A model generated the notes under the pieces. That model had not been told where the DNA came from. It searched no databases and saw only the letters and a program-made list of their open reading frames with translations. Source: Pseudomonadota bacterium (GTDB lineage Bacteria; Pseudomonadota; Gammaproteobacteria; Steroidobacterales; Woeseiaceae). From it: DNA of 64,000 bases. Where the stretch lies: assembly GCA_038531945.1 (NCBI GenBank), contig JBCBBH010000001.1, forward strand, positions 147,456 to 211,455. Direction: 5' to 3'. Both the position numbers and the translations under genes were made by a program. Below, one piece after another: positions 16,693-37,007 of the stretch. The stretch's first letter is position 1. Each line of letters opens with the position of its first letter.

Positions 16693-16710
16693 ATCCACAG
16701 GGGAAAAACT

Positions 16711-17466: not shown

Positions 17467-17482
17467 ACGGCAGTCAATCGAT

Positions 17483-18391
17483 ATGGCGCGAATCAGTTTA
17501 TTCGGTGAACCACTTTTGGAGCTGGCGGGTACGCGCGCAGGTGTTGTGCTTGGACCCGCCACACTCGGCGTCGCCGGAGACACGCTCAACACTGCGGTGT
17601 ACCTCGCGCGACTCGGTCACGAAGTAAACTACATCACCGCGTTGGGCACCGACACTTACTCGGATGCCCTGATCGAGCAACTCGAAGCGGAAGGCGTGTC
17701 AACCGGGAACATCGCACAGCATCCCTCTCGCGTTCCCGGACTTTACGCGATCCGAACGGATGAGAACGGCGAGCGCTATTTTACGTACTGGCGCGACCAG
17801 TCCGCCGCACGCGACTTCTTCTCGCTGCCGGATGCAGGCGAGAAATTTGCATCCGCTATGGACGGAGACCTTTTCTATTTCAGCGGTATCTCGCTTGCGA
17901 TTCTTTCGACAGATCATCGTAGTCTGCTGCTCAACATCGCGCGCCAATGCACCTCTCGGGGTGTGCGCGTCGCTTTTGATGGCAACTACCGACCGTACGG
18001 CTGGCAGTCCAGGGAAGCGGCGAGAGACTGCCTGAACGCTGTCGGCGGAATCGCGGACGTAGTGCTGCCCACCAGCGAGGATGACGACAAACTCTTCGGT
18101 GATGCGCCGCCTATTGAGCATGCGCGACGCTGGAAAGCACTCGGTGTCGATACGGTCATCGTCAAGAACGGCCCGGACGGCGCGTGGGTGCTCAGCGGAT
18201 CGAACGACCCGACTCATGTCCCGGTGGACGAGGTCATCCAACCCATCGACACAACTGGCGCGGGCGATAGCTTCAATGCGGCCTGCCTTTCCGGCCTGCT
18301 CGAGGGACAATCGCCAGCCGATGCGGCGGCCCATGGCAACCGGTTAGCCGGACAAGTGATCCAGCATCGAGGTGCCTTGATTCCCAGGTAA
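17483..18391 (+). CDS. kdgK: 2-dehydro-3-deoxygluconokinase (PfkB family)
   Basis: PfkB ribokinase-like motifs (DTTGAGDSFNAA near the C-terminus). Its position in a uronate locus. Confidence 0.8.
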   Translation: MARISLFGEPLLELAGTRAGVVLGPATLGVAGDTLNTAVYLARLGHEVNYITALGTDTYSDALIEQLEAEGVSTGNIAQHPSRVPGLYAIRTDENGERYFTYWRDQSAARDFFSLPDAGEKFASAMDGDLFYFSGISLAILSTDHRSLLLNIARQCTSRGVRVAFDGNYRPYGWQSREAARDCLNAVGGIADVVLPTSEDDDKLFGDAPPIEHARRWKALGVDTVIVKNGPDGAWVLSGSNDPTHVPVDEVIQPIDTTGAGDSFNAACLSGLLEGQSPADAAAHGNRLAGQVIQHRGALIPR

Positions 18392-20302: not shown

Positions 20303-21673
20303 CTAGCCTGTCGCCGCAGAAGGTCGCCGCCGACGTCGACGTCGTTTCTTGGCAGCGGTCGGCTTAGCGTGGGTCGCCTGCGAACGCGACCCTGACTTCG
20401 AAGCTGCGGCGGGTTTGCCGTTGGACTTTCGTCGCCTGCGCGGATTCTTCTTCGCCGAATTCTCGTTATTTGAACTCGGCGCGTTTCGTGACTGTCGGCT
20501 CGGACGACCGCCGCGCTTCGCAGGTGCCGCCTTCACGTTTGGATCGGGCTCGAAACCCTCGACAATCTGCTGCTCGATGTATGAGCCCAGGAGCTTCTCA
20601 ATGTCGCGAAACAGCTTGGTGTCGTCGACACAGACCAACGACGCCGCGTAGCCGTCCTCTCCCGCTCTTGCGGTCCGTCCGATCCGATGCACGTAGTCTT
20701 CGGGAACAGACGGAAGATCGTAATTCACGACGTACGGCAATTTATCGATATCCAGCCCGCGCGCCGCAATATCAGTCGCGACCAATACTCTGATTTCGCC
20801 CGACTTGAATCCTTGCAGTGCTCGCGTACGAGCGCCCTGCGACTTGTTGCCGTGAATCGCGGAGGCGTCGATACCCTCTTCAGTGAGTTGACGTGCGAGT
20901 CGATTCGCACCGTGTTTGGTGCGCGTAAAGACCAGCACCTGCCGCCAGTTACCGGAGCCGATCAGGTATGCCAACATTTCGCGCTTGCGCGCTTTATCAA
21001 CCGGATGCGCCACTTGGGTGACGCGTTCAGCGGTTGTATTGCGCGGTGCGATTTCGATCTCGACCGGCTGATTGAGAATCGTCGATGAGAGATTCAGGAT
21101 GTCCTTCGAAAAGGTTGCTGAGAACAAGAGATTCTGTCGCTGGTTCGGCAGGATCTTCAAGATCTTCCGGATATCGCGAATGAACCCCATGTCCAGCATG
21201 CGGTCCGCTTCGTCAAGAACGAGCATCTCTACATGCGAAAGGTCAATAGTATTCTGACCGACGTGATCCAGTAGTCGCCCTGGCGTCGCGACAACAATAT
21301 CAACACCGCTGCGAAGCTTTGCGATTTGCGGACGAATGCTGACACCGCCAAAAATCTGCATCGACTTTAGTGGCAGGTTCGCGCCGTAGGCTTTGACGCT
21401 CTCACTGACCTGAATTGCCAGCTCTCGCGTAGGCACCAGAATCAAGGCGCGAATCTGTCGCTTTCCTCGACCTGGCTTGCTGTTGAGTTGCTGCAGTAAC
21501 GGCAGAGTAAAACCGGCGGTCTTGCCGGTGCCGGTTTGTGCGCTGGCCAAAATATCTCGACCGTCAAGTACCGCTGGAATCGCAGCTGCCTGGATCGGTG
21601 TCGCCTCGCGGTAGCCTTGTGATTCGACCGCGCGCAACAATTCAGCCGACAGGCTGAGTTCTTCAAATAACAC
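20303..21673 (-). CDS. DEAD-box ATP-dependent RNA helicase (RhlE-like) with a basic C-terminal tail
   Basis: Q-motif, [12 protein letters not shown] (VLDEADRM), SAT and HRIGRTAR motifs. Start re-set to GTG 21673, which is preceded by a GGAGA RBS. The track's 56-aa N-terminal extension is not helicase-like. Confidence 0.85.
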
Positions 21674-21885
21674 TGGGAGTTTCTCCGAGTCGTCTGAACG
21701 TCGCTGCAAACCATGGGGTCGCTCAGCGCGTTTCGGTCCAGACTTTGGATTGATTATGCGATCTGGCGGACTGCCAGAATCGTCGTGTGTCGACCGAAGG
21801 ACACAAAAGATAAAGAGAGGATACCAGATAAGGCGATGTGGCAAGGGATTGATTGCGTCAACTGTGATCGGCTGCCGCCGGGCTA

Positions 21886-23849: not shown

Positions 23850-23877
23850 TTGACAGCGTTTTAAAGCTGCGTATACT
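23850..23877 (+). promoter_or_regulatory. near-consensus sigma70 promoter (TTGACA, 16-nt spacer, TATACT)
   Basis: TTGACA at 23850-23855 and TATACT at 23872-23877. The predicted TSS at about 23884 sits 2-3 nt before an ATG. Confidence 0.6.
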
Positions 23878-24057: not shown

Positions 24058-24122
24058 CCTCCCAGAAATTTTTCCTGGAAGGCTCGACACACGGACCTTC
24101 CAGGGAAAACTCCAAGTAGAGA

Positions 24123-24157
24123 CCCCGGTCGGTTCGTTAGAACCACCGGGGTTTTTT
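24123..24157 (+). terminator. strong rho-independent terminator
   Basis: CCCCGGTCGGTTC-GTTA-GAACCACCGGGG hairpin followed by TTTTTT. A second 9-bp hairpin lies at 24072-24104. Confidence 0.7.
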
Positions 24158-24281
24158 ATTGCCTCCGGTTTTTGCTCTTTAACAATGTGGATTGTTCAGA
24201 CGTTGGGGGCGGAGTCTTTATGGGAAAGACTGCGATCTACAGACCCGTCGTGCGCTTATGCGCCCGCCCCAAGCGTTTTTG

Positions 24282-24358
24282 GCTAACGTAGCTCAATGTG
24301 GCAGAGCAGCTGTCTTGTAAACAGCCGGTTGTGAGTTCAACCCTCACCGTTAGCTCCA
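24282..24358 (+). tRNA. tRNA-Thr(TGT)
   Basis: Full cloverleaf folded by hand. Acceptor GCTAACG/CGTTAGC, D arm TAGCTC..GAGC, anticodon loop CTTGTAA, T loop TTCAACC, CCA encoded. Confidence 0.8.
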
Positions 24359-24363
24359 TTTAT

Positions 24364-24448
24364 GGAGAGGCAATCATTGGCGAGAATAGCCGGCTGTAAC
24401 CCGGTGGTCCTTATGGCCTTGTAGGTTCAATTCCTACCCTCTCCACCA
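24364..24448 (+). tRNA. tRNA-Tyr(GTA), long variable arm
   Basis: Acceptor GGAGAGG/CCTCTCC, anticodon loop CTGTAAC, long variable arm, T arm GTAGG-TTCAATT-CCTAC, CCA. The D arm is atypical. Confidence 0.65.
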
Positions 24449-24450
24449 AC

Positions 24451-24522
24451 GGATCGGTAGCTGAGACAGAATAGCGGCTGGCTGAAGACCAGCAGACGAT
24501 GGTGCGACTCCATCCCGATCCA
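24451..24522 (+). tRNA. non-canonical tRNA-like gene, anticodon GAA (Phe-like)
   Basis: Perfect 7-bp acceptor GGATCGG/CCGATCC. Anticodon stem-loop GCTGG-CTGAAGA-CCAGC. The D loop lacks G18G19 (AGACAGAA) and the T loop is TGCGACT, so T54-Psi55-C56 is absent. No encoded CCA. Confidence 0.45.
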
Positions 24523-24526
24523 CCGT

Positions 24527-24602
24527 TGCCGTGTAGCTCAACAGGTAGAGCAGCCGACTGTTACTCAGTTTGTTGATGGTTCAAATCCATCCATGGCAGC
24601 CA
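24527..24602 (+). tRNA. tRNA-Asn(GTT)-like
   Basis: Acceptor TGCCGTG/CATGGCA with disc G and CCA. Canonical D and T arms. Anticodon loop CTGTTAC with C37 and one C-A mismatch in the anticodon stem. Confidence 0.55.
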
Positions 24603-24606
24603 CCCC

Positions 24607-24682
24607 GGGGGATTAGCTCAACGGGTAGAGCACCTCGTTTGCAACGAAAAGGCTCTCGGTTCAAATCCGAGATCCTCCACCA
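24607..24682 (+). tRNA. tRNA-Ala(TGC)-like (G3:U70 present)
   Basis: Acceptor GGGGGAT/ATCCTCC with a G3-U70 wobble. Canonical D and T arms. Anticodon loop TTTGCAA, but the anticodon stem has two C-A mismatches at its base. Confidence 0.5.
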
Positions 24683-25152
24683 AATTTCGAGTCATCGGTA
24701 TTACCGAGGCTCTTGATAGCGGCCTGGCGCTGCTAACCGTCGGTAACGGCGGGAAAGGAACGCACCCATGGCGTTTCGCCGAGACTTGAGTTTCGGTCAC
24801 TCCAGGCAAGTTCGGCCTCCGGTTGTTCTCGGCACTGTCGGGAATAGCGGCCAAGCGATACGCGGAAGTAGCGTGACTGACGCACCGGCAATGTCGGGAA
24901 TGCGGGTCCGTGAAAGAACACGTGGTGGTGCAACCCGCGACACCAATATCGTCAACCGTGAGAGGTAACGAATAGTGCAGTTCAGTGCGAGCCTTGCAGG
25001 CAAGTGCGACTGTGCAGAAGGCGAGGGTTCTGGTGGTCAGCCAGCGTCCTTTTCATCGGTCAAGTAGCCGGCAGGTGAACGACATTCGGCGTGTTGTATT
25101 TCGTCGCCCAAAAGGTGGCGAAGCGACTGAGGCGCGCACGTCGCAGTGGGAT

Positions 25153-25223
25153 TGTGATTTAGCTCAATGGCAGAGCGATTGCCCAGCAAGCAATAGGTGC
25201 AGGTTCGACTCCTGTGTTCACGA
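25153..25223 (+). tRNA. non-canonical tRNA-like gene (anticodon loop CCAGCAA, C33, A34-G35-C36)
   Basis: Canonical D arm (TAGCTCAATGGCAGAGC) and T arm (GCAGG-TTCGACT-CCTGT). Perfect anticodon stem ATTGC/GCAAT. The loop carries C33 and A34. The acceptor has one mismatch. No CCA. Confidence 0.35.
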
Positions 25224-25579
25224 CTAACGTCAAACGCAAAGACGCGCCTCGGTACGCCGTCGAAAATGGCTTAAGGCCGGAGTCTACGGACAATCCGGCG
25301 GTTGGATCAGCCGCAAGTTGATCGGACCTTGGCAGCAAGCCGCACGGTCGGGAAGCCCCCGTTTGGAGCCCGCAAGGCTCACGGTACGCAAGCTGCTGAC
25401 TAGACGTGTACTACAAGTGCATCGCCGCACTTCAAAAAAGGCAGTCATGGTCTTCGACTGTCGAGTTGGCTTCGGCCAATCGGCAGTGGACAAGCACGCA
25501 ACGAGTGTCACGCACGGCATTCGGTACTCGTGCGAACGGAGGACTACAAAGCGCCTAGTCTCAGCGCTTTTCCTTTTCC

Positions 25580-25655
25580 GCCACGATAGCTCAATCGGAA
25601 GAGCATCGGATTGTCGATCCGAAAGATGTCGGTTCGAGTCCGATCCGTGGCGCCA
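25580..25655 (+). tRNA. tRNA-Asp(GTC)
   Basis: Cloverleaf folds cleanly. Anticodon loop TTGTCGA, T loop TTCGAGT, CCA. One A-C mismatch at 7-66. Confidence 0.8.
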
Positions 25656-25661
25656 TTCTTC

Positions 25662-25737
25662 GATCCTGTGGGCTAACGGTTAGGCCACCAGACTTTCAAT
25701 CTGGGGATTGCGAGTTCGAGTCTCGCCAGGATCACCA
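25662..25737 (+). tRNA. tRNA-Glu(TTC)
   Basis: Acceptor GATCCTG/CAGGATC, anticodon loop CTTTCAA, T arm GCGAG-TTCGAGT-CTCGC, CCA. Confidence 0.8.
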
Positions 25738-25739
25738 AA

Positions 25740-25866
25740 TGACCAGTAGCTCAGCGGGTAGAGCACACGCCTGATATGCGTGAGGTCGCACGTTCAACGC
25801 CAGGCAGGATGCCTCAGTGCCGCGTAGCACAGGACGTGCGAGAGCGGCCCGTCGCCTGGTCAACCA
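25740..25866 (+). tRNA. split/interrupted tRNA-Ile(GAT)-like gene (about 68-nt insertion replacing the T arm)
   Basis: The 5' half is canonical: acceptor TGACCAG, D arm, and anticodon arm CACGC-CTGATAT-GCGTG plus variable AGGTC. The matching 3' acceptor CTGGTCA-A-CCA is found only at 25856-25866. The intervening 25788-25855 forms three hairpins rather than a T arm. Confidence 0.35.
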
Positions 25867-25872
25867 AACACT

Positions 25873-25949
25873 CTGCGTGTAGCCAAACTGGATAAGGCCC
25901 CTGACTTCGAATCAGGAGATTGAGAGTTCGAGTCCCTCCGCGCAGGCCA
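25873..25949 (+). tRNA. tRNA-Arg(TCG)
   Basis: Acceptor CTGCGTG/CGCGCAG, anticodon loop CTTCGAA, T loop TTCGAGT, CCA. One mismatch in the T stem. Confidence 0.7.
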
Positions 25950-25955
25950 AACACT

Positions 25956-26033
25956 CTGGGAGTAGCTCAGCCTGGTCAGAGCACTTGCCTTGGAAGCAAG
26001 GGGTCGCTGGTTCAAGTCCAGCCTTCCAGACCA
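25956..26033 (+). tRNA. tRNA-Pro(TGG)
   Basis: Acceptor CTGGGAG/CTTCCAG, anticodon stem-loop CTTGC-CTTGGAA-GCAAG, T arm GCTGG-TTCAAGT-CCAGC, CCA. Confidence 0.8.
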
Positions 26034-26058
26034 ACGTTTCGAAACCGGAGCGCTACAA

Positions 26059-26146
26059 GGAGACTCGCATGGCTGGCGTGCTTATCGGTCTTGAAAACCG
26101 TGATGTCCTGACGGGCGTGGGGGTTCGATCCCCACAGTCTCCGCCA
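26059..26146 (+). tRNA. tRNA-Ser(TGA), long variable arm
   Basis: Acceptor GGAGACT/AGTCTCC, anticodon CGGT-CTTGAAA-ACCG, long variable arm, T loop TTCGATC, CCA. Position 8 is C and the D arm is atypical. Confidence 0.65.
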
Positions 26147-26152
26147 ATCGAT

Positions 26153-26230
26153 GGTGTATCTAGCTTAATCGGCAAAAGCTCCGGGCCGTGACCCCGGGAG
26201 ATATCGGTTCGAGTCCGATGATTCACCCCA
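26153..26230 (+). tRNA. tRNA-His(GTG) with G-1 and C73, anticodon loop CCGTGAC (C33)
   Basis: G-1 is present and the discriminator is C, the His identity set. Anticodon stem CCGGG/CCCGG. The loop has C at position 33 instead of the near-universal U. One T-T mismatch in the acceptor. Confidence 0.6.
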
Positions 26231-26236
26231 ATTCAT

Positions 26237-26328
26237 GGAGATGTGGCCGAGTGGCTTAAGGCACTCGTTTGCTAAACGAGAGAGGGCTCGAAAGTCCTTC
26301 CCAGGTTCGAATCCTGGCATCTCCGCCA
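26237..26328 (+). tRNA. tRNA-Ser(GCT), long variable arm
   Basis: Acceptor GGAGATG/CATCTCC, D arm TGGCCGAGTGGCTTAAGGCA, anticodon CTCGT-TTGCTAA-ACGAG, long variable arm, T loop TTCGAAT, CCA. Confidence 0.8.
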
Positions 26329-26337
26329 TTTGTCTAT

Positions 26338-26408
26338 TGAGAGGGAGGCGGTCTCAGACGAGAGTCATAACCTCGTTGTCGTCGGTTCGAATCCGACCCT
26401 CTCGACCA
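26338..26408 (+). tRNA. tRNA-like gene with CAT anticodon and truncated D arm (71 nt)
   Basis: Acceptor TGAGAGG/CCTCTCG with A and CCA. T arm GTCGG-TTCGAAT-CCGAC. Anticodon loop GTCATAA. Only about 14 nt are available for the D region. Confidence 0.4.
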
Positions 26409-26477
26409 TTACTTTCTAGCTCAGCCGGCATAACGTCGCTCTCGCAGAGAGGCAGTCGGCGAGAAAATCGAACAACT

Positions 26478-26555
26478 ACGGCTATAGCTCAGCGGAAAAA
26501 GAGCGCGACCGTGCGAAGGTCGAGGACGGAGGTTCAAATCCTTCTAGCCGTGCCA
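26478..26555 (+). tRNA. tRNA-Arg(GCG)
   Basis: Perfect acceptor ACGGCTA/TAGCCGT, D arm TAGCTC..GAGC, anticodon CGACC-GTGCGAA-GGTCG, T loop TTCAAAT, CCA. Confidence 0.65.
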
Positions 26556-26561
26556 AACCAT

Positions 26562-26636
26562 TCAGCGATCGTCTAACCGGTAGGACACCAGACTTTGACT
26601 CTGGAAGTAGAGGTTCGATTCCTCTTCGCTGAGCCA
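26562..26636 (+). tRNA. tRNA-Gln(TTG)
   Basis: Perfect acceptor TCAGCGA/TCGCTGA, anticodon CCAGA-CTTTGAC-TCTGG, T arm AGAGG-TTCGATT-CCTCT, CCA. Confidence 0.8.
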
Positions 26637-26641
26637 ACAAC

Positions 26642-26715
26642 AGGTCGCTCTTCTAACGGCAAGATAACGGATTCCAAACCCGTGAATCGGTGTTCGACTC
26701 ACCGGCGGCCTGCCA
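26642..26715 (+). tRNA. tRNA-Trp(CCA)
   Basis: Acceptor AGGTCGC/GCGGCCT, anticodon loop TTCCAAA, T arm CGGTG-TTCGACT-CACCG, CCA. Confidence 0.75.
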
Positions 26716-26721
26716 ACAACT

Positions 26722-26796
26722 GATGCTGTGGTCAAATGGCAAAGGCGCGAGGTTGCAACCCTCGAGATGACAGTTCAACTCTGTCCAGCATCTCCA
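26722..26796 (+). tRNA. tRNA-Cys(GCA)
   Basis: Perfect acceptor GATGCTG/CAGCATC, anticodon CGAGG-TTGCAAC-CCTCG, T arm GACAG-TTCAACT-CTGTC, CCA. Confidence 0.8.
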
Positions 26797-26885
26797 CGGC
26801 CAGACACAGCGAGTAGTTCAAACATCGGACGCTCCGTCGACGAATCGATTTATGAGATAGCGGCCAGAAAAGGCTTTCTTGAAGC

Positions 26886-29228
26886 TTACCGCACACCCAA
26901 TGGCGTGAACTCGTATCGCTCAGAAACTGCGCATCGCTGCAATGATCGCGTGACGACGACGCCGGACGATATGAAATTCACCGTGATGTCGCGATGGTCG
27001 ATTGCACCCTGAAACGATCCTTGTGCGGACTCAATGATCAGTACCTGCTTGGAATCATCGTAGTGCAATTGGGTGACTCGACGTTCACCGCGGCGCCACG
27101 CCTCAGTACGGTCATCGTCTTCGATCAGACGAAAGTGACCATTGGCTCCGGTGTACACGTCTATCACTAACTTCGACTTGTCGATAAAGGCAGTGGTGAG
27201 TGCGTACTCTCGTTTCGGAATGATGGCACCAGCACGGACGTAAAGCGGCATGGCGTTGTTCTCTTGGGTAAGTACTTGCTCGCCATCGAGAAGGTCGCCA
27301 CCACCGAGTGGATACCAGCCACCGTTTGGAAGCCAGACGCTGGTGTGGCTTTGATCGACAACCGGTGCAACAAGAATGCTGGGGCCGAACATAAACTGAA
27401 GATCGCGCTTCCAAGCAGATTCACTGTCAGGAAACTCGAGTAACATCGGCCTTGCGATAGGCAGGCCGGTGTCGGCAGCCTCATGCGCCACCGAATACAG
27501 ATAGGGCATCAACTCATAACGCAGTCGCCCATAGCGGTGTGCTGCAGCAACGCTCGATTCACTGCGATCAAGAGGCCAGCGCGACTGACCCATACCGTGC
27601 GGTTTCCAAATGGGTGCGAACGCACCAAGCGCCATCGCCCACCGTTGATATAGCGATTCGTCGGGACCGCTGCCTTGGTCCCAATCGAAAAAGCCGCCGG
27701 CATCATGCCCCCAAAACGGGAAGCCAGCGAGACCGGCCAATTGCATCGCACGGATCTGCGACGCCATATCGTCGTCGTTGGGTTTAATATCACCGCTCCA
27801 TAGCGTCGCATAGCGTTGGGCGCCCGCGGTCATGCCGCGCACCCATACGAAAGGTCGATTGATGATCGGTGACCGATCCCAACCCTCTGCCACGAGCGCT
27901 TTGGCGATCAAAAAAAACCAGTAGTTCCGCATCTCGGCTGAACTGCGCCCATTGGCAAGCACGATGTCTTTCGGTGCCGCGCCCTGCTCGTCGAACTCGT
28001 CGATCCAAAGCGCATCACCCGGGAAGTTGAGAGCGGGATTTAGTGATTTCTCGTAAAACACCTGCCAGAACCAGCGACGAAAGTCCGGGTTCGTCAAATC
28101 CGGCGCACTTTCCGGAAACTCGATATTGTCGATCGTCGGAAGATTAAACGACGAAGTCCAGCCGTCCGAGAAACGTGCGATGCAGCGGTTGAAGTCGATC
28201 GTTGAGACCAACCCATTGCCTTCCAGCCATGTTGCCCAGGCGACAGGATCTGGGTAGCGAGTTCGGTCCCATTCGATTTTCGACTCACAACGCTTGCCGC
28301 CCGCCGCGCGCCACCGGTTATCGTTGACCACGTGATCCAACGGCAGTCCCGCAATACGGTGCGATTGGATCTTGTCTTTCCACCACGCTTCATCGGAAGG
28401 CGTATCAGAGTTGTGATCGTGACCCTTGTCCGACAGCTGCAGGCCGAACATCGACTTCATTGGCAGGCGTGGACGGCCCGTCAATTGTGTATAGCGATCG
28501 ACTACTGCCTTCAACGAAGGTCCCGCGATGAACACATAGTCCATCTGTCCGGTAAACCCGTGGGTGTCAATCGCGATGCTGTAGTCCCCATCCGCATTCA
28601 ATGCAAATCGGTTAGGGAACGTACTGTTGAGAAAGACGCCGTAGCCGCGACTCGATAGATAAAAGGGAACGATTAGCGGTGCCTGCTCGACGGGTTCGCT
28701 GCCATAGTTGCGCTCTACGATGGAACCCGAAAGATCTAGCCGATCCGCGCGCGCGAAATAGCCGTGGCCCAGACCGGTGAAGCGCTCGCCGTCCACGGGC
28801 ACGAATCGAACACCGCGTTCGTCGCCTGCTCGGTACGAGCCCATTTTTTCTTGCAGAATCGGTGTGGTGCTTTGTGCGGTCTCGAATGAGACTGCTAGCG
28901 TTTCGCGATCGATCACCACTTTGAGTTCACTCGATTGCAGTACCACTGTATCGCTGTTAGTTGCGACATCAACACTGCTCGTCCAATCGTGTGACTCGAT
29001 CATCTCGTAATAGCTATCCGGCAGAAACGCCTCGCCGTCGTGGGCGGTTTGCAGACGTACCATTGCGTCGCCGAACCACAATATTCTGAGGGTGCGCGAA
29101 CCATCTGGCGACTCGACATAGAACGCACGAGAGTCGGTATGGAACTGGGACGCTGCACAGCCGCACAGGACTAAGACGGCAGTGGCGAGCAGGCTGAGTT
29201 TCACTTGTGTTTTTGTCGGCACGTTCAT
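26886..29228 (-). CDS. glycoside hydrolase family 31 (alpha-glucosidase/alpha-xylosidase-like) lipoprotein
   Basis: GH31-like core with a candidate nucleophile region (ALWIDEFDE). Start re-set to ATG 29228 (MNVPTKTQ...LVLCGCAAS lipobox). The track's 39-aa extension overlaps the neighbouring gene. Confidence 0.7.
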   Translation of the reverse strand: MNVPTKTQVKLSLLATAVLVLCGCAASQFHTDSRAFYVESPDGSRTLRILWFGDAMVRLQTAHDGEAFLPDSYYEMIESHDWTSSVDVATNSDTVVLQSSELKVVIDRETLAVSFETAQSTTPILQEKMGSYRAGDERGVRFVPVDGERFTGLGHGYFARADRLDLSGSIVERNYGSEPVEQAPLIVPFYLSSRGYGVFLNSTFPNRFALNADGDYSIAIDTHGFTGQMDYVFIAGPSLKAVVDRYTQLTGRPRLPMKSMFGLQLSDKGHDHNSDTPSDEAWWKDKIQSHRIAGLPLDHVVNDNRWRAAGGKRCESKIEWDRTRYPDPVAWATWLEGNGLVSTIDFNRCIARFSDGWTSSFNLPTIDNIEFPESAPDLTNPDFRRWFWQVFYEKSLNPALNFPGDALWIDEFDEQGAAPKDIVLANGRSSAEMRNYWFFLIAKALVAEGWDRSPIINRPFVWVRGMTAGAQRYATLWSGDIKPNDDDMASQIRAMQLAGLAGFPFWGHDAGGFFDWDQGSGPDESLYQRWAMALGAFAPIWKPHGMGQSRWPLDRSESSVAAAHRYGRLRYELMPYLYSVAHEAADTGLPIARPMLLEFPDSESAWKRDLQFMFGPSILVAPVVDQSHTSVWLPNGGWYPLGGGDLLDGEQVLTQENNAMPLYVRAGAIIPKREYALTTAFIDKSKLVIDVYTGANGHFRLIEDDDRTEAWRRGERRVTQLHYDDSKQVLIIESAQGSFQGAIDHRDITVNFISSGVVVTRSLQRCAVSERYEFTPLGVR

Positions 29229-29242
29229 ACTCAGGTGTTCGG

Positions 29243-29974
29243 CTAGTTCGAGAAACCCCAAAGACCAATGTTGTCGAATTGAACACGCTTCGGCAGTTGC
29301 AGCAGGAAAAGCACCGCAGCGGCAAGGTCTTCGGTTTGCAACCAACCCGGTGTCATCTCATCCGCAACTTTGGGCTTTGGCACTTGCACAAGACCTGGGC
29401 ACAAGCTGTGAACCTTGATGCCGAATTCGCGGACTTCTTCCTGCAAGGCGAGTCCGAAACCAAGAACGCCGAACTTCGCGGCGCAGTAAGGCGCTGCCTC
29501 GGCGTAACCATTCTTGGCCGCTTGCGACGCGATATTGATGATGAAGCCGCTCCGGTTCGCCTGCATGGTCGGCAGCACCGCCTGACTCATAAGGAACGTA
29601 CCTTTGGTACAGGTCTCAAGTACGAGATCCCAGTTGGCCTCGGGACAATCGATGACCTTATCGGTCACACCGAGTCCCGAATTGTTGATCAAGAAATCAA
29701 CGCCGCGGTATTGAGCGAGTGTCTCTTCGACGATCGCTTGAACCTGCGCTTTGACACGCACGTCGGCAGCGACTCCGATGCAGTTCGACTCAAACTCATC
29801 GTTGAGTTCCGCCGCAGTTTCGGTGAGCAGGTCTGCACGTCGCGATGTGATCACCACGTCGACACCGCTCGCCATCAGGCCCCGAGTAATCGCCAGGCCG
29901 ATACCCGAGGCACCACCCGTGACAATGGCCGTTTTCCCTCGCAAATCGCTTGAGGAAGCAGTCAGTTCATTCAT
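29243..29974 (-). CDS. SDR-family oxidoreductase
   Basis: KTAIVTGGASGIGLAI Rossmann motif. Start re-set to the internal ATG 29974. The track start 30094 would run into the tRNA-Lys gene. Confidence 0.75.
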   Translation of the reverse strand: MNELTASSSDLRGKTAIVTGGASGIGLAITRGLMASGVDVVITSRRADLLTETAAELNDEFESNCIGVAADVRVKAQVQAIVEETLAQYRGVDFLINNSGLGVTDKVIDCPEANWDLVLETCTKGTFLMSQAVLPTMQANRSGFIINIASQAAKNGYAEAAPYCAAKFGVLGFGLALQEEVREFGIKVHSLCPGLVQVPKPKVADEMTPGWLQTEDLAAAVLFLLQLPKRVQFDNIGLWGFSN

Positions 29975-30013
29975 GGCTCGGCAGTATAGATCAGGTCTGC
30001 TTGATGCATCATC

Positions 30014-30089
30014 GAATCGATAGCTCAATCGGCAGAGCACCCGGCTCTTACCCGGGAGGTTGTGAGGTCGGAACTCACTCGATTCACCA
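30014..30089 (+). tRNA. tRNA-Lys(CTT), T loop GTCGGAA (non-canonical T54)
   Basis: Perfect acceptor GAATCGA/TCGATTC with A and CCA. Anticodon CCCGG-CTCTTAC-CCGGG. T stem GTGAG/CTCAC, but the loop starts with G rather than T. Confidence 0.6.
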
Positions 30090-30095
30090 AACAAT

Positions 30096-30170
30096 AGCCC
30101 GATAGCTCAGCAGTAGAGCACCGCTCTCACAAAGCGGAGGTCGGTGGTGCAACCCCACCTCGGGCGACCA
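30096..30170 (+). tRNA. non-canonical tRNA-like gene, anticodon CAC (Val-like)
   Basis: Anticodon CCGCT-CTCACAA-AGCGG. The D loop AGCAGTA lacks GG and the T loop is TGCAACC, the same co-variation as in the Phe-like gene at 24451. A1-G72 mismatch. CCA encoded. Confidence 0.45.
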
Positions 30171-30307
30171 CTTTTGACGCAATTCCGTCATACCGAGGTC
30201 TGAATTGTCGCCAAGTTCTGCGGACCGGGTTCTTTGAATTCCCGACTGGCGCGCAACGCTAACCATCGCCGCGCGTGTACCGAACGAAACGGCATTCTCA
30301 CCGCCAC

Positions 30308-30384
30308 TGGAAATTAGCTCAGATGGGTAGAGCATACGACTCATAATCGTACGGTCGCAGGTTCAACTCCTGCATTTCCCACCA
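30308..30384 (+). tRNA. tRNA-Met or tRNA-Ile2 (CAT)
   Basis: Anticodon TACGA-CTCATAA-TCGTA. Canonical D and T arms. The 1-72 pair is a T-C mismatch. CCA. Confidence 0.7.
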
Positions 30385-30681
30385 CTGGCTTCCACAGCCA
30401 TCCTGGCGAAAAGAACGAGAGTTCTGCGGTTCGAATCCGCCCTTGCAGAGAGATTCTGCACCACCGCGACTGTGTCCAGCGAACGGCAATGCGAGCTTGC
30501 TCGCGTTGTCTGACGCAGCAACCGGTTCGCCGGTCGCCGTGCTGGTCCGTACGCCGAACCGATTCCCGAAACGACGCCGGACTGTGTGCGCTCGCACTCG
30601 CGTCGTGTGTCGAATCGCGTCTCGGTTCCGCCTACGCACCACCGGCTGCCCGCGCACGGGTTGTGGACACAGCCGCACCCA

Positions 30682-31269
30682 TCAAAAATCCGCGCCTGAC
30701 TTCAGCGTAAACACCACAGAAATCTCAAGTTGGTTGTTGCGCTTCTCGGGCGTTGCGAGAAGCGCGAATTGACCAAGTGCTTGAGAGCGAGCGATGTCCC
30801 GTTCAGAAAGCAGAGAGTCGTCGGCAAGAAAGACCTTCGGCGCCCATTGGTTTCCGTACTCTTCGGATACCAATGTGAAGTGAATATGGGCGGCCTCGCG
30901 GCCGAGATGGTCCGCAGCCGGACGGATGGTTTGGAACACAAACTCACCGCATTCGTCTGTGATCGCCCAACCTTGCAATCGCCACATCGTGAGCTCGCGA
31001 TCGTTTCGGCCCAGTTCGAAACCTTCAGCGTCGCGATGATAGGAATGCACGACGACGTTGGGTGCGACTTCGCCAACAGGCGTAAAGACTGTCCCGCGCA
31101 CTACAAGCGGCTCACCCGGCTCATCGGGCGAACCAATCCGCGACACCGATGACAATGGAACACTCTTTGCCGCAATCGCTTCGTGCCAAGCGCGAAGCCA
31201 GGCTGGATCAACGTCGCCGGCAACAGAAGCGCCGCTCCATAGCGCTGCGCAAAGAACCCAATATTTCAT
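30682..31269 (-). CDS. secreted intradiol ring-cleavage dioxygenase-like protein
   Basis: Signal peptide. AAHIHF iron-ligand-like motif. Size and pattern resemble small protocatechuate-dioxygenase-like lipoproteins. Confidence 0.4.
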   Translation of the reverse strand: MKYWVLCAALWSGASVAGDVDPAWLRAWHEAIAAKSVPLSSVSRIGSPDEPGEPLVVRGTVFTPVGEVAPNVVVHSYHRDAEGFELGRNDRELTMWRLQGWAITDECGEFVFQTIRPAADHLGREAAHIHFTLVSEEYGNQWAPKVFLADDSLLSERDIARSQALGQFALLATPEKRNNQLEISVVFTLKSGADF

Positions 31270-31357
31270 CCACGACCCTCAGTTGGACTTCACTTCCTGT
31301 TAGATAGTAGATCGGACTGAGAGGTTTAACTCACTGACCAACAAAGGAGGTGCTTTG

Positions 31358-32644
31358 ATGGCTCACTCATCGAGCCAGGCCAGTCGCGTAGCCGACTGGG
31401 TACGAAATCGCAACGAGCAAGCACTGGCTTTGGCGCGTCGCGAGAACAAACGCATGTTTCCGACTACAGAAACATACAACGATAACAACCAAGGAGAACG
31501 CAACATGTTTTACATGAAGTTCAACGTGCGCAAGCACGAGCGTGCACTCCTGTTCCGCGACGGCGATTTCGTCAAGTTCCTTGAGCCTGGCGTGCACCGT
31601 TTCGTGACGGTTTTGCACAAGTACACGGTCGAATCGTTCGACATCACGGTACCGCTATTCGCACACCGGCTGCAGGACTTCCTGGTGGAGTCCTACGCAG
31701 AGGATGTCGCTCGCTACTTCGACGTAGTGACGACCGATGCCAATGAGATCGCCATCGTCTACCACGACGAGCGTGTCACGCTGATCATGGCTCCAGCCAC
31801 GCGCCATCTCTTCACGAAGGGTGTGCGCAAGATTCGCGTCGAGCGCTTTGCGATCACCGGTGATGTCGACGTCGACGCCCGTTTGGCCAAGCGCCTGTTG
31901 ACGGGCGACGACCGAACGTTGCAGGCGATCGCTGAGAAGGCGATCTACGCGCGCATCGTGTCGGACGGCCACGTGGGCTTGCTCTACGTGGATGGTGAAT
32001 TGAAGCGCTCACTGGCACCGGGTTACCACGCGTTTTTCGCGGTGGAGCGCGATGTCGAGGTGAAGTGCTTCGATACGCGTGTGCAGACGCTGGAAGTCTC
32101 CGGCCAGGAAATCCTGACCAAGGACAAGGTGGCTGTGCGCATCAACCTGACTGCAACCTACCAGTACGCCGATGTGGAAGCGGCTGTGCGTGCTGCGAAG
32201 GACCCGCTGGATCACCTGTACAAGGAAGTGCAGTTCGGTTTGCGCGGTGCGGTCGGTACCCGAACGCTGGATGCTTTGCTTGAAGACAAGACGGTCATCG
32301 ACACGTCGGTGGCACGTCATCTCGATGAGCACTTCGAAGCAATGGGTATCACGGTGAAGTCCGTTGGCGTGAAGGACATCATCCTGCCGGGTGACATGAA
32401 GATGTTGCTGGGTCAGGTGGTGGAGGCCGAAAAGGCCGCGCAGGCCAACGTGATTCGCCGTCGCGAAGAGACCAACGCGACCCGTTCACTTCTGAACACC
32501 GCGAAGGTCATGGAGACGAACGCTGTGGCGTTGCGTCTCAAGGAGCTCGAGACGCTCGAGAAGATCACCGACAAGATCGGCAACATCTCGGTTTACGGCG
32601 GCCTCGATGCCGTGTTGAACGACCTGGTTCGCATGAAGCAGTGA
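31358..32644 (+). CDS. SPFH/Band-7 (stomatin/flotillin-like) domain protein
   Basis: Band-7 core (ILTKDKVAVRINLTATYQ...KDIILPGDMK...EAEKAAQANVIRRREETNA). ATG 31358 has an AGGAGG RBS. A second possible start, ATG 31505, also has an AGGAG RBS. Confidence 0.8.
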   Translation: MAHSSSQASRVADWVRNRNEQALALARRENKRMFPTTETYNDNNQGERNMFYMKFNVRKHERALLFRDGDFVKFLEPGVHRFVTVLHKYTVESFDITVPLFAHRLQDFLVESYAEDVARYFDVVTTDANEIAIVYHDERVTLIMAPATRHLFTKGVRKIRVERFAITGDVDVDARLAKRLLTGDDRTLQAIAEKAIYARIVSDGHVGLLYVDGELKRSLAPGYHAFFAVERDVEVKCFDTRVQTLEVSGQEILTKDKVAVRINLTATYQYADVEAAVRAAKDPLDHLYKEVQFGLRGAVGTRTLDALLEDKTVIDTSVARHLDEHFEAMGITVKSVGVKDIILPGDMKMLLGQVVEAEKAAQANVIRRREETNATRSLLNTAKVMETNAVALRLKELETLEKITDKIGNISVYGGLDAVLNDLVRMKQ

Positions 32645-32728
32645 GTTCGACCAACCGGCGAGAGGTCAGGTGCAAGGCCTGGCCTCTCGCCATCTATTCG
32701 CCTTCGGTGTACCGAAGGCAATCCCAAC

Positions 32729-32804
32729 GGTGAATGTAGCTTAATGGCAAAGCCCCAGGCCGTGACCCTGGAAGATGCCGGTTCGACCCCGGTGGTTCAC
32801 CCCA
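32729..32804 (+). tRNA. tRNA-His(GTG) with G-1/C73, anticodon loop CCGTGAC (C33), second copy
   Basis: G-1 plus discriminator C. Anticodon stem CCAGG/CCTGG with the same C33-containing loop as the His gene at 26153. One G-G mismatch at 7-66. Confidence 0.55.
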
Positions 32805-32810
32805 AACACT

Positions 32811-32888
32811 AGCCGTCTGAAGGGAATTGGCATACCTACCTGTCTTAGAAACAGGTGCTTCTCGGTTCGACTCCGAGGGCGGCTACCA
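32811..32888 (+). tRNA. Leu-anticodon (TAG) tRNA with short variable arm (class-I-like)
   Basis: Leu-type D loop (GGAATTGGCA) and A73. Perfect anticodon stem CCTGT/ACAGG with loop CTTAGAA. It has a 5-nt variable loop in place of the long arm that all bacterial tRNA-Leu normally carry. Confidence 0.55.
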
Positions 32889-32943
32889 ATTTTTCTGGGC
32901 AGAGCTGACTGGGCGTCTTCAGGGCGTGGTACCAATGGCGTGA

Positions 32944-34032
32944 ATGCCTACTCCTTGGGTTCACTCTCGTCTTTATTCGTGGCCGATACGCACGCACAAT
33001 CAGGTAGGGTGCATTGAGTCGAGCATCGGAATTAGCAGACGGCGAATAGTTGTGACCACACGAACTCGAAACGTTCTCCTGTTCGGCCTACTCGTTGTGG
33101 TCGGAATCGCAATGGTCAAGATACGAAATCCGAGCGTCGACCTCGCTGTTGATCGACAAGATATCGGCAGCACTGTATCCGCGGAGGAAATCCCAAAACC
33201 AGGGGCGATAACAACTCTGGCCGACGCGCCCGGCGATGCGTTCGCTGATGCCGCAGCTTCAGCGGTCGCTACCGTCCCTGACGAGACCTGCGTCCGAGCC
33301 AAGGACGTGGAGATGCTGCTCTTGAGTTCCAGTGAGCCGCAGCGAATTCAAAACCTGATGTCCTACGGAGAGTGGTTCAACGACTACGCCGGCGTCGATG
33401 AAGCAACACTCGAATCACTTGCTGATCAACTCGACACCAAGGCGATGATCGTCCTTGGGACTCAAGCCGAGTTTCGTGCCATCGGTAGGGACCCTGCACT
33501 GGCGGTCGAGAAACTCAACGGAAGTGCCGTGAGAGAGAATGTCCAAAACAATGCCTTTGACGCTTGGTTGCGAGACCGAGAACGTATCGATGCCCATCGA
33601 AAAGATGTCGAAGCAGCTCGCGACTGGTATTACCAAGCTGCACTCCTTGGCGATCTCGGCGCTCTCCCTTTTCTTGGTGACGTACAGCTGGCGTTAGAAG
33701 AAACACCCGTAAGTCTCGGTTGGATTAGCCAAGAGGACTTCGATCAACTCCCTCGGCAGGCGCAAAACCCTAATGAGGTGCGTGGCGCTTATGGTGTGGC
33801 GGCTACTCGAATCGCTCCGAACGCCGGTACTGGATACGCTGGTTTACTACAGGGAATCTACGAGATATCGCTTACGCATAAGCCGTTCGCGGACGCGTTA
33901 GCGGAACAGTACAAACGCGACCGCGCCGATCTCGGCCTGCCACCGCTTGAGGTTCCACCGGCTGAGATTTCTCTGGATGAGTTAAGAGACCTTGCGGCAC
34001 GGCTCTGTCCTGGCGAAGAAGATTTCCTCTGA
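32944..34032 (+). CDS. hypothetical membrane-anchored protein
   Basis: N-terminal TM segment (VLLFGLLVVVGIAMV) and an acidic/helical C-terminal domain. No recognisable family. The start is uncertain. Confidence 0.4.
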   Translation: MPTPWVHSRLYSWPIRTHNQVGCIESSIGISRRRIVVTTRTRNVLLFGLLVVVGIAMVKIRNPSVDLAVDRQDIGSTVSAEEIPKPGAITTLADAPGDAFADAAASAVATVPDETCVRAKDVEMLLLSSSEPQRIQNLMSYGEWFNDYAGVDEATLESLADQLDTKAMIVLGTQAEFRAIGRDPALAVEKLNGSAVRENVQNNAFDAWLRDRERIDAHRKDVEAARDWYYQAALLGDLGALPFLGDVQLALEETPVSLGWISQEDFDQLPRQAQNPNEVRGAYGVAATRIAPNAGTGYAGLLQGIYEISLTHKPFADALAEQYKRDRADLGLPPLEVPPAEISLDELRDLAARLCPGEEDFL

Positions 34033-34090: not shown

Positions 34091-34167
34091 GCGCAGCTGA
34101 CGGGAAAGGCATACCTGGATAGCTCAAACCTATTCGTTTCCCCGTTCGAATCGGGGGCTGCGCACCA
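34091..34167 (+). tRNA. Leu-anticodon (CAA) tRNA-like gene with short variable arm, 45 nt upstream of the HNH-RtcB operon
   Basis: Perfect acceptor GCGCAGC/GCTGCGC with A73 and CCA. T arm CCCCG-TTCGAAT-CGGGG. Anticodon GATAG-CTCAAAC-CTATT. The D region TGACGGGAAAGGCATACCT is paralogous to that of the TAG Leu-like gene. 5-nt variable loop. Confidence 0.5.
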
Positions 34168-34211
34168 ACTCCCTCTGAACAATCCACATTGTTGAAGTCG
34201 TGAGAAGAACG

Positions 34212-36089: not shown

Positions 36090-37007
36090 ATGGACACTAA
36101 AGAAGCAAAGGAGATCATTGACTGTCTTGGGCAAGACGCATTGCCGTTCTGGTATTTCCGAGATCGCTATGCGCTCCTGTTGATCAGTATGCTCGGCGAC
36201 TCAGTCTCCAAACAGGAGATTAAAGCGTCCCCGTATGCGCAACTCTTGGACAAAGCGGCCGTGCGTTCCGTTCTTGCACAGTTCCGTGGGCGCGCGGCTC
36301 CCAGTCATGCCTTCGAACTGGAGACGCGCGATGAGCCCGTTTCGTATCCGCTGACGCTGGCACTCTGGGGTGGACACAGCCACTGGTGGGTGCAAACCAC
36401 GCGGCGAGGTTACAGCTTAGTCCTGCAACTCAATTTTCCGATTGAACACAACCGGACCTACCGCAGGCTCATCGATCCCGAAGGTCGAATGCCATTTGTG
36501 TATACGGATCACCCCGTTCGAATCAAACGGTTCGTGACGATGGCTTGGTCTCGGATGGATGTGGACCTCAACACCGGCGAAGTCTTGATTGAAGAGATTC
36601 AATCCGACTGGATGCGCCATTGGCGACACTACCGAGAAGTTGCACGACAGCGTCGACACTGTGTGCCCGTGCGTGGCCTATGCGTTGCTGTCGACAACAT
36701 CATCCAGTATTGCGACACAGAACTCTCTAAACACCAGCACTGGCCGGAAACCATGCTAGCGGCAAGCATCTGGTTCATCCGTTGTCAGCTCGGCATTCGC
36801 CGGATTTTCTATCACACCCACGAATCGGGCGCGGCACTGAAGCGAACGGGTGATCGCAAGCCACCGCGCTCGCTTTACACGAAATTACCTGCGCGGTTTT
36901 GCTTCCGCGAAACGGAGACACGACCTGCCTTCATGCAGCGTGGTGTGCGGACGAACTGCTCGAAGAAGGCGGTGGCCGCTGCTCGGTTCCAGCTGCTCGA
37001 ACTGTAA
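36090..37007 (+). CDS. hypothetical protein (305 aa), downstream of rtcB
   Basis: Long ORF with coding-like composition and no recognisable motifs. The RBS is not obvious. Confidence 0.4.
   Translation: MDTKEAKEIIDCLGQDALPFWYFRDRYALLLISMLGDSVSKQEIKASPYAQLLDKAAVRSVLAQFRGRAAPSHAFELETRDEPVSYPLTLALWGGHSHWWVQTTRRGYSLVLQLNFPIEHNRTYRRLIDPEGRMPFVYTDHPVRIKRFVTMAWSRMDVDLNTGEVLIEEIQSDWMRHWRHYREVARQRRHCVPVRGLCVAVDNIIQYCDTELSKHQHWPETMLAASIWFIRCQLGIRRIFYHTHESGAALKRTGDRKPPRSLYTKLPARFCFRETETRPAFMQRGVRTNCSKKAVAAARFQLLEL

Follow-up and report, generated by a model that had tools for sequence, protein, structure and literature searches.

A probable accessory tRNA operon with an embedded GOLLD RNA and a neighbouring RNA ligase gene in a conserved island of Pseudomonadota

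Dense arrays of tRNA genes have been described in bacteria and phages, and the subject here is one such array, at positions 24282-34167 of a 64-kb stretch of contig JBCBBH010000001.1 from a Woeseiaceae bacterium (Pseudomonadota); this whole stretch is what we call the window. Described tRNA array units hold at least 20 tRNA genes at a density of at least 2 genes per kb (PMC4758250), and L-arrays spread horizontally, occur in all classes of Proteobacteria, have a conserved HNH neighbour and carry rtcB in their neighbourhoods (PMC8421152). Translation inhibitors switch on the L-array of Anabaena sp. PCC 7120, which is otherwise silent and which aids survival, with rtcB and HNH genes co-regulated (PMC8421152), and the ribbon-helix-helix (RHH) protein TrcR represses this trn operon together with rtcB, HNH genes and a slipin (SPFH) gene (PMC10272220). 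A 32-tRNA cluster of the mycobacterium M. aubagnense contains a GOLLD RNA with an internal pseudo-tRNA as well as an HNH gene, and a short-variable-loop tRNA-Leu(TAG) occurs in another mycobacterial tRNA cluster (PMC6582537). GOLLD is structurally a 14-mer nanocage and is often found near tRNA islands, in phages and prophages (PMC12286853), and the tRNA clusters of phages have been proposed to act against tRNA-cleaving defences (PMC10264068, PMC11464382).

With 23 tRNA genes in 9.89 kb (2.3 per kb), the window's array falls within the published bounds of a tRNA array unit, while its compact main block alone, at 6.8 per kb, stays just under the required number with 17 genes, or 19 when degenerate ones are counted. 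It shares with L-arrays its co-oriented genes, short spacers, non-periodic layout, patchy distribution and neighbouring HNH gene, and we place it in the tRNA array unit/L-array class with high confidence. An earlier note on this DNA had stated that no such example was described; that statement fails, as tRNA array units and L-arrays (PMC4758250, PMC8421152) and arrays that combine GOLLD with HNH (PMC6582537) are all on record. The note had also overlooked the GOLLD RNA that occupies the array's 470+355-nt gaps, along with the HNH, RtcB, SPFH and helix-turn-helix (HTH) genes of the locus.

In the best-supported interpretation, the region holds an accessory tRNA operon that was gained by horizontal transfer and lies within a conserved island of marine-type Pseudomonadota, partly eroded in this copy. 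By analogy with Anabaena, its function would be that of an inducible backup tRNA pool coupled to RNA repair, a reading to which we assign a probability of roughly 0.5-0.6. The proteobacterial island architecture, the linkage of GOLLD, RtcB, SPFH, HNH and GNAT-fold genes, the inverted repeat that brackets the array and the covariation in the tRNA elbow appear to be undescribed, and the literature that we searched held no mention of GOLLD and RtcB together.

The tRNA array and its sister islands

ARAGORN called 23 tRNA genes in the window, all on the plus strand and all within 24282-34167: 17 in the main block (24282-26796), three at 30014-30384, two at 32730-32888 and one at 34091-34167. The dense array of about 19 genes that the earlier note had seen in the main block is therefore real, the remaining two being degenerate tRNA-like genes beyond ARAGORN's 23 (Ile-GAT at 25740-25866 and a CAT-anticodon gene at 26337-26410), and the six satellites it had listed at 30014-30384, 32729-32888 and 34091-34167 were all called. 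The note's spacers of 2-6 nt needed some widening: we measured 2-8 nt for most neighbours within blocks, with larger gaps of 470+355, 60, 25 and 67 nt. Rfam recovered 20 tRNA genes at the gathering score (37-70 bits) and Trp in a sensitive scan, and left undetected the Leu(caa) gene that ARAGORN called at 34091-34167. Ser(tga) at 26059-26146 matched the tRNA-Sec model alone, at a sub-threshold 37 bits, an identity that we rejected because the anticodon is UGA (Ser) and not UCA.

The most similar genes within the array are the two tRNA-His copies, which are 82% identical and differ by compensatory stem changes, all other pairs being at most 72% identical. Spacers straight after the encoded CCA often read AACACT, AACAAT or AACCAT, and one spacer type recurs after positions 25949, 26555, 26636, 26715, 30089 and 32804 (AACACT twice, AACAAT, AACCAT, ACAACT and ACAAC). 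Its presence in both the main block and the satellites is consistent with descent from one ancestral array, and it is perhaps a shared processing signal. Several other candidates were set aside. Met(cat) at 30308 shows a 1:72 mismatch but lacks the three anticodon-stem G:C pairs of an initiator; the 'Gly' calls that ARAGORN made at a relaxed threshold lie on the minus strand or inside the SPFH gene, overlap real genes and are spurious; and among the weak Rfam matches, YrlA (25-29 bits) overlaps true tRNAs, Plastid-ycf2 and psbI are antisense echoes of tRNAs, and mir and His-leader have E values of 0.05 or worse.

The array covers 18-19 amino acids, with Gly absent and Ile present solely as a disrupted gene, much as the earlier note had described its coverage. 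It further lacks a canonical initiator and an AGR-Arg decoder and offers a single anticodon for most amino acids, and because of these gaps it cannot be the only tRNA source of the cell. These absences, together with the horizontally distributed island family to which the array belongs, support both the note's proposal of an alternative set and our own reading of the array as supernumerary. Its broad coverage and mostly good tRNA scores might instead suggest the main housekeeping tRNA operon of the organism; we regard this as effectively refuted, given that Gly codons are used normally in the window's genes, that its tRNA-Leu genes lack the long variable arm, and that the distribution is patchy and island-like.

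A comparison of synteny in relatives, which the earlier note had proposed as a check, revealed the same island architecture in six other loci, all metagenome islands of Pseudomonadota. We label homologue loci with L-numbers, the six islands being L167/L168, L169-L171, L172, L173, L174 and L175. Every HNH homologue locus with enough flanking sequence carries a tRNA array (7/7 independent loci), with GOLLD full-length in six and as a fragment in L172. In the sister islands, an HTH gene is followed by the conserved promoter and small open reading frame (ORF), an array of 6-25 tRNAs with a GOLLD of ~870 nt and its embedded tRNA-like module, and often a Band_7 gene; the 3' end consists of one or more tRNA-Leu genes, HNH and then usually RtcB and a homologue of ORF305. 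The window's tRNA order is shared with L167 and L175, and in L175 the array is contiguous over 3.7 kb, reading Thr-Tyr-Phe-Asn-Ala-[GOLLD]-Asp-Ile-Pro-Gly-Ser-His-Ser-Arg-Lys-Gly-Val and continuing with Arg(gcg)-Gln-Trp-Cys-Arg-Leu(tag)-Leu(caa)-HNH-RtcB. The window's array is this backbone, rearranged and interrupted at three places, by the GH31 and SDR genes, by the dioxygenase and SPFH genes and by ORF362; the minus-strand GH31 and SDR genes cut off the satellite at 30014-30384 from the main array. At the level of single genes, L167 8176-8448 is collinear with the Ser-His-Ser block, L169 has a Leu(cag) gene 90-91% identical to the window's Leu(tag), and the orthologue of Leu(caa) is the final gene 5' of HNH in L167, L173, L175 and L166.

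Because the flanking genes differ at every island locus, and because L169, L174 and L175 lie among metabolic genes on chromosomal contigs of 0.75-2 Mb, we conclude that the element is a chromosomal island that has spread horizontally and is patchily distributed. Two further loci, L166 and L176, are almost identical to the window and represent fragments of its own lineage. RtcB relatives are numerous at 60-75% identity and, since the best match is 75% identical, none in the metagenomes is close. In a contig search of genomes, relatives of the interrupting GH31 gene (66-68% identical, best 68%) had no tRNAs nearby and no shared synteny. Among the best 80 RtcB loci of IMG/VR, seven have at least four tRNAs within 10 kb, and two of these seven, L015 and L034, combine an 18-19-tRNA array, a GOLLD with an embedded tRNA and RtcB.

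These last loci bear on a different origin, in which the island would be phage or mobile-element cargo, left by a prophage or an integrative and conjugative element, with tRNAs and GOLLD that served the element through codon supply or evasion of anticodon nucleases. The RtcB of L015 and L034 is 64-66% identical to that of the window, GOLLD is typical of phages and prophages near tRNA islands (PMC12286853), the window's regulator is cI/XRE-like, and an anti-nuclease hypothesis for phage tRNAs has been published (PMC10264068). The island of L167, on a contig of 67.8 kb, is moreover preceded by genes for a helicase-methyltransferase and a DUF1643 protein and followed at 10663-15585 by DpdA (7-deazaguanine DNA modification), NAD-dependent DNA ligase and RecA genes, which may place the most complete copy of the array in a mobile-element or phage-like setting. 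We nevertheless consider such an origin unlikely. Pfam and PHROG scans of the 64 kb returned metabolic, regulatory and surface proteins and no integrase, capsid, tail or terminase gene; megablast and blastn against 50,697 phage records gave no match, and a 20-kb megablast query taken around the array gave no useful match among phages or PLSDB plasmids. The window's GOLLD has no detectable sequence similarity to plasmid or phage records, a distant blastn with this region returning a single chance match of 56 nt, and IMG/VR scans with HNH, ORF305 and ORF362 yielded no close relatives. The chromosomal contigs of L169, L174 and L175, finally, carry the island with its protein genes conserved.

Related combinations of parts turned up in the same searches. 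Metagenome locus L132 (JADMIO010820015.1) holds RtcB, five tRNAs, HNH, a YrlA Y-RNA-like RNA (76 bits, above gathering) and SPFH at 7182-14608. In IMG/VR, L012 has a group I intron (7388-7578, 61.5 bits) beside a phage tRNA-His, and L078 has a permuted tmRNA (3391-3587, 74.6 bits) inside a phage tRNA array carrying RtcB.

Non-canonical tRNAs and the GOLLD RNA

About half of the array members are non-canonical in their ARAGORN structures, as the earlier note had also found. Bacterial cytoplasmic tRNA-Leu normally carries a long variable arm, and both tRNA-Leu genes of the window measure 77-78 nt with a variable loop of 4-5 nt. In Phe and Val, A18 replaces G18 and G55 replaces U55; Lys carries G54 and G58; in Tyr and Ser(tga), C8 goes together with a weak D stem; and Trp has stem mismatches and an Rfam score of 39 bits. 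One Arg gene carries an unusual GCG anticodon, and His is present in two copies. Many identity elements, by established rules and with the bases read from the ARAGORN structures, are intact, as in Ala(tgc) (G3:U70), His (G-1/C73), Gln (U1:A72/G73), Pro (C1:G72/A73), Cys (U73) and both Leu (A73).

We compared the stems of the window's tRNAs with those of the sister islands. Between the window and L167 (18 orthologous tRNA pairs, 306 stem pairs), 192 stem pairs are unchanged, 83 carry compensatory changes, 19 are changed on one side and still pair, and 12 are disrupted; against L169 the corresponding numbers are 96, 94, 13 and 18. Compensatory changes exceed disruptive ones by roughly 5-7 to 1, a ratio that is large even though ARAGORN structure calls are somewhat biased toward pairing. 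Across seven islands with 139 tRNAs, CCA is encoded in 126 and the short arm is present in 15 of the 16 tRNA-Leu genes. G55 is confined to tRNAs without the D-loop GG (6/6 versus 0/130; Fisher p = 9e-9, the cases not all being independent), and the 54:58 pair is T:A in 124 tRNAs, A:T in 11 and G:G in three. The recurring features are the short-arm tRNA-Leu, A18/G55 and A54/U58. Because the odd features recur and covary across islands, the comparison indicates that the unusual elbow and variable-arm features are selected family traits rather than random decay. The earlier note was right that many members are non-canonical; this does not make them degenerate, as most of the odd features are conserved and covary.

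The same data speak to the possibility that an old transfer left behind an array that is now functionless and decaying, with pseudogenes as its non-canonical members. True erosion does look to have reached the window's copy in the Ile gene, the CAT-like gene and the remnants. The Ile(GAT)-like gene folds with a perfect 7-bp acceptor stem followed by ACCA, and both its D arm (canonical) and its anticodon arm (GAU) are in place. L167 keeps an intact Ile(gat), which shares 83% identity with the 5' half of the window's gene; in the window's gene an insertion of ~55 nt replaces the T arm, and this gene is probably a pseudogene. The CAT-like gene and the adjoining remnant (26411-26477) were called by neither ARAGORN nor Rfam, unrelated genes split the array, several Rfam scores are low, and Gly, Lys(ttt), Val(tac) and Arg(tct) have been lost relative to L175. 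A relic is nonetheless quite unlikely in light of the excess of compensatory changes, the retention of CCA ends and identity elements (those of Ala, His, Cys and Leu among them), the sharing and covariation of odd features across islands and the bracketing repeat, whose arms are still intact at 23/24 positions.

The two large gaps in the main block (24683-25152 and 25225-25579) belong to a single GOLLD RNA, a class that is among the largest bacterial non-coding RNAs. It is flanked by tRNA genes on both sides and has a conserved length of ~870 nt (>800 nt). The Rfam model RF02032 aligned in full (1-416) at 25084-25567 with an E value of 3e-36 and few non-canonical pairs; the copies in the sister islands reach 130-133 bits, against 192 and 213 bits for the phage GOLLDs of L015 and L034. 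Window 24717-25586 is 79.6% identical to L169 over 888 nt, and an nhmmer profile from three GOLLD copies retrieved full-length homologues in L173-L175 (E 1e-219 to 1e-229). In a six-sequence alignment, RNAalifold predicted 274 pairs, of which 92 carry compensatory changes, the 5' domain included, the pairs having been predicted on the same alignment that supplied these counts. The tRNA-like module within this RNA lacks G3:U70 and CCA. Across the islands its cloverleaf is kept through covariation, its anticodon differs from one island to the next (agc, tga, cgt, ctt, gtt, cgc) and CCA is often missing, a combination that argues for a structural role of the module rather than for decoding.

Genes and DNA elements of the island

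In the window, the island runs from the HTH gene through the promoter, small ORF and terminator to the array with its GOLLD, and then through SPFH, tRNA-Leu, HNH and RtcB to the GNAT-fold protein (Table 1). The HTH regulator is 59-69% identical to the same-position genes in L167, L169 and L172-L175, and the same sigma-70-type promoter is present in all seven islands. The small ORF was also recovered by tblastn in L167 and L175; its length difference is due to an in-frame 9-nt indel, and the C-terminus ...GE(P/R)MT* is common to the window, L167 and L169. Within the conserved leader, a 9-bp hairpin (CCTGGAAGG...CCTTCCAGG, window 24078-24110) stands ahead of the terminator, and after the left repeat arm a further hairpin at 24201-24281 (AGTCTTT...AAAGACT) covaries in L167 (AGCCTTT...AAAGGCT). 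Together, small ORF, hairpin and terminator might act as an attenuator that senses translation; no alternative antiterminator pairing was evident in this leader.

Table 1. Features of the tRNA array island, with window coordinates
Feature	Coordinates	Strand	Evidence and remarks
XRE/cI-type helix-turn-helix regulator, 138 aa	23389..23805	+	Pfam HTH_3/HTH_31; PHROG transcriptional repressors; island's left edge
Sigma-70-type promoter TTGACA-N16-TATACT	23850..23877	+	11/12 consensus matches
Small ORF, 56 aa	23887..24057	+	Conserved; open in window, L167 (56 aa) and L169 (59 aa)
Intrinsic terminator hairpin and U-run	24123..24156	+	Sequence reading; between small ORF and array; conserved in L167, L169, L173
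Inverted repeat, left arm CTTTAACAATGTGGATTGTTCAGA	24177..24200	.	24 nt; core ACAAT-N4-ATTGT palindromic
tRNA-Thr(tgt), Tyr(gta), Phe(gaa), Asn(gtt), Ala(tgc)	24282..24682	+	ARAGORN, Rfam; spacers 2-5 nt; order matches L175, L167
GOLLD RNA, ~870 nt	24717..25567	+	5' domain 24717-25083; Rfam-matched part 25084-25567
tRNA-like module, 'Ala(agc)' by ARAGORN	25153..25224	+	In unpaired linker of RF02032 model
tRNA-Asp(gtc), Glu(ttc)	25580..25737	+	ARAGORN, Rfam
tRNA-Ile(GAT)-like gene	25740..25866	+	Rfam tRNA 28.8 bits at 25740-25807; fold
tRNA-Arg(tcg), Pro(tgg), Ser(tga), His(gtg), Ser(gct)	25873..26328	+	ARAGORN, Rfam
CAT-anticodon tRNA-like gene, reduced D arm, ACCA end	26337-26410	+	Sequence reading, folds
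tRNA remnant	26411-26477	+	Sequence reading, folds
tRNA-Arg(gcg), Gln(ttg), Trp(cca), Cys(gca)	26478..26796	+	ARAGORN, Rfam; collinear with L167 9253-9541
Satellite: tRNA-Lys(ctt), Val(cac), 137-nt gap, Met(cat)	30014..30384	+	ARAGORN, Rfam
SPFH/Band-7 (slipin-like) protein	31355..32644	+	Pfam Band_7 9e-29; conserved island component
Satellite: second tRNA-His(gtg), short-arm tRNA-Leu(tag)	32730..32888	+	ARAGORN
ORF362, predicted membrane-anchored protein	32944..34032	+	Specific to the window's island
Short-arm tRNA-Leu(caa), final tRNA of array	34091..34167	+	ARAGORN
Inverted repeat, right arm TCTGAACAATCCACATTGTTGAAG	34174..34197	.	Directly 5' of HNH start
HNH endonuclease, ~195-199 aa	34200..34799	+	Pfam HNH/HNH_5; overlaps rtcB by 4 nt
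RtcB RNA 3'-phosphate ligase, 410 aa	34796..36028	+	Pfam RtcB PF01139, 6e-127
Strong terminator after rtcB	36032-36073		
ORF305, GNAT-like (acyl-CoA N-acyltransferase) fold core	36090..37007	+	Fold search; conserved

A repeat search found that the two arms of the inverted repeat, complementary at 23/24 positions, together bracket the entire array, and they are the only exact ACAATN4ATTGT sites in the 64 kb. The pair is also present in L167, L169 and L172-L174 (six islands counting the window), and within each island the non-palindromic centre and flank change in concert between the arms. Since conserved genes lie outside both arms, these are not the ends of the element; on this comparative evidence, the HTH protein might bind them as a pair of operators, they might pair as a long-range helix in the precursor RNA, or they might serve as recombination sites.

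The SPFH protein is 61-72% identical to the Band_7 genes within L169 and L172-L174. Homologues that are 44-62% identical stand 22-149 nt 5' of RtcB in nine unrelated, array-less metagenome contigs (L104, L107, L117, L120, L121, L122, L124, L137 and L156), and because the pairing persists in these contigs, SPFH and RtcB form a conserved pair independently of tRNA arrays. In the window the two genes are 2.15 kb apart, with three tRNAs, ORF362 and HNH in between. ORF362 gave no match in Pfam, PHROG, NCBIfam or PADLOC, and neither the other islands nor viral contigs contain a homologue. The HNH protein has more than 1300 homologues, and its gene is conserved at the 3' end of the array in all islands. 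In L172-L175 a different RtcB paralogue (469 aa, 26-30% identical) follows HNH at ~10580-12030, which suggests, as far as sequence comparison goes, an independent recruitment of RNA ligases into the same slot. A check for an Rtc RNA repair operon of the E. coli/Salmonella kind, in which RtcB is joined by the RtcA cyclase and the sigma-54 activator RtcR, found RtcB and no RtcA or RtcR domain among the scanned neighbours. ORF305 has no sequence relative in the PDB, and the fold search alone was informative; as its homologues P0146, P0208 and P0222 bear the source names Woeseiaceae, Acaryochloris thomasi (a cyanobacterium) and Desulfopila, this family ranges beyond the island's Pseudomonadota hosts. 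PADLOC returned no defence-system match beyond generic HNH and helicase similarity.

The genes around the island are those of an ordinary Gram-negative chromosome, including an alginate/heparinase utilisation locus, a TonB receptor, a TRAP transporter and an ECF sigma factor. The polysaccharide (alginate/heparinase-type) utilisation locus at 470-18391 encodes a pectate-lyase-like protein, a TonB-dependent receptor, LacI and GntR regulators, the TRAP proteins DctP and DctM, chondroitinase-B-like and heparinase II/III-like lyases, an SDR and a PfkB kinase. A gene for an RhlE-type DEAD-box RNA helicase (20303-21844, minus strand) lies 2.4 kb 5' of the island and another DEAD helicase lies 3' of the island in L172 (13725-15035), which may be coincidence. 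On the other side, window 37359-41478 encodes a 1154-aa FG-GAP/PKD/TSP3 surface protein beside an ECF sigma factor of the PF07638 type, and L176 likewise has a related FG-GAP gene as the next gene on its right-hand side.

Working model and comparison with known systems

Our working model is drawn by analogy with the Anabaena trn operon and the TrcR regulon. In it, the adjacent HTH regulator would keep the array low, maybe through the two ACAAT-N4-ATTGT sites 5' of the array and 5' of HNH-rtcB. Impaired translation or tRNA damage, whether from toxins, anticodon nucleases or phage attack, would lead to transcription of the array as poly-tRNA precursors that RNase P and 3' exonucleases would trim. 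The cell would thereby obtain a structurally divergent spare tRNA for nearly every amino acid, and RtcB would religate cleaved tRNAs. A role against tRNA-targeting nucleases, which the earlier note suggested, is plausible, and it gains support from the adjoining RtcB ligase; two RtcB paralogues occur at this position in different islands.

Several observations weigh against this model or the accessory-operon interpretation behind it. The Ile and CAT-like genes, the remnants, Ser(tga), Tyr and Trp are weak or disrupted members, and the window's copy of the array may be on its way to decay. Minus-strand GH31, SDR and dioxygenase genes interrupt the array; a single precursor is impossible in the window, so the satellites need their own promoters, and a promoter scan found none for the satellite blocks. 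The regulator is of the XRE type rather than a TrcR-type RHH protein, which makes the regulatory analogy functional only. The 65-72% identity of HNH is unusually high for a selfish homing endonuclease, which may mean that HNH does something other than selfish homing. At 131.6 bits, GOLLD scores below the Rfam gathering score of 150, though its E value puts the match far outside chance. The supernumerary status of the array, lastly, is deduced from what it lacks and not from a count of housekeeping genes.

A more elaborate version, which we consider quite unlikely, treats the island as a self-contained module that replaces and repairs the tRNA pool. GOLLD would then act with the array tRNAs and RtcB, for example by scaffolding, protecting or releasing spare tRNAs or by sequestering tRNA nucleases; the re-engineered elbow (A18:G55, A54:U58, G54:G58) and the short-arm Leu would let the tRNAs evade nucleases or modification enzymes that recognise the canonical elbow; and the inverted repeat would form a long-range processing helix as in rRNA operons.

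Whichever version applies, GOLLD is set here and in at least five sister islands (full-length) between spare tRNA genes and beside an RNA ligase, HNH, SPFH and a regulator, a concrete and testable setting for its function outside phages. The covariation at 18:55 and 54:58 and the short-arm tRNA-Leu indicate that the arrays encode different yet structurally coherent tRNAs, and such divergent tRNAs bear on how cells and mobile elements evade tRNA-targeting immunity and toxins.

Among described systems, the Anabaena L-array resembles the window's array in its long, co-oriented, non-periodic run with about one tRNA per amino acid, the adjoining HNH and the nearby rtcB. The parts of the Anabaena stress regulon (trn operon, HNH, rtcB and slipin/SPFH) are physically linked in the window's island, which extends the idea of a translational-stress tRNA operon to Proteobacteria. 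In contrast to Anabaena, where the RHH protein TrcR is encoded at a distance, the window's XRE-type regulator is adjacent, and the island adds a GOLLD within the array, the 24-nt bracketing inverted repeat, the conserved GNAT-fold protein and the leader ORF. The mycobacterial units of M. aubagnense and M. abscessus M24 (PMC6582537, PMC5966550) likewise have a GOLLD between tRNAs with a pseudo-tRNA inside and an HNH in the cluster, and their tRNAs are structurally unlike housekeeping ones, including a short-variable-loop tRNA-Leu(TAG) that has its counterpart in the short-arm Leu of the window; they differ in belonging to Actinobacteria, often on plasmids or prophages, and linkage to RtcB, SPFH or HTH genes is unreported for them. 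Phage clusters (T4, T5, cluster C1 mycobacteriophages, L015 and L034) share the dense one-per-amino-acid array and homing-endonuclease neighbours, some also having GOLLD and RtcB, whereas the window's island is chromosomal, is free of phage genes and has its own regulator. The tRNA array units of Acidithiobacillus (PMC4758250), likened to the window by description and not by sequence, are also Gram-negative and horizontally acquired, with 20 or more tRNA genes and a density of at least 2 per kb; linkage of GOLLD or RtcB is unreported for them and is part of what sets the window's island apart.

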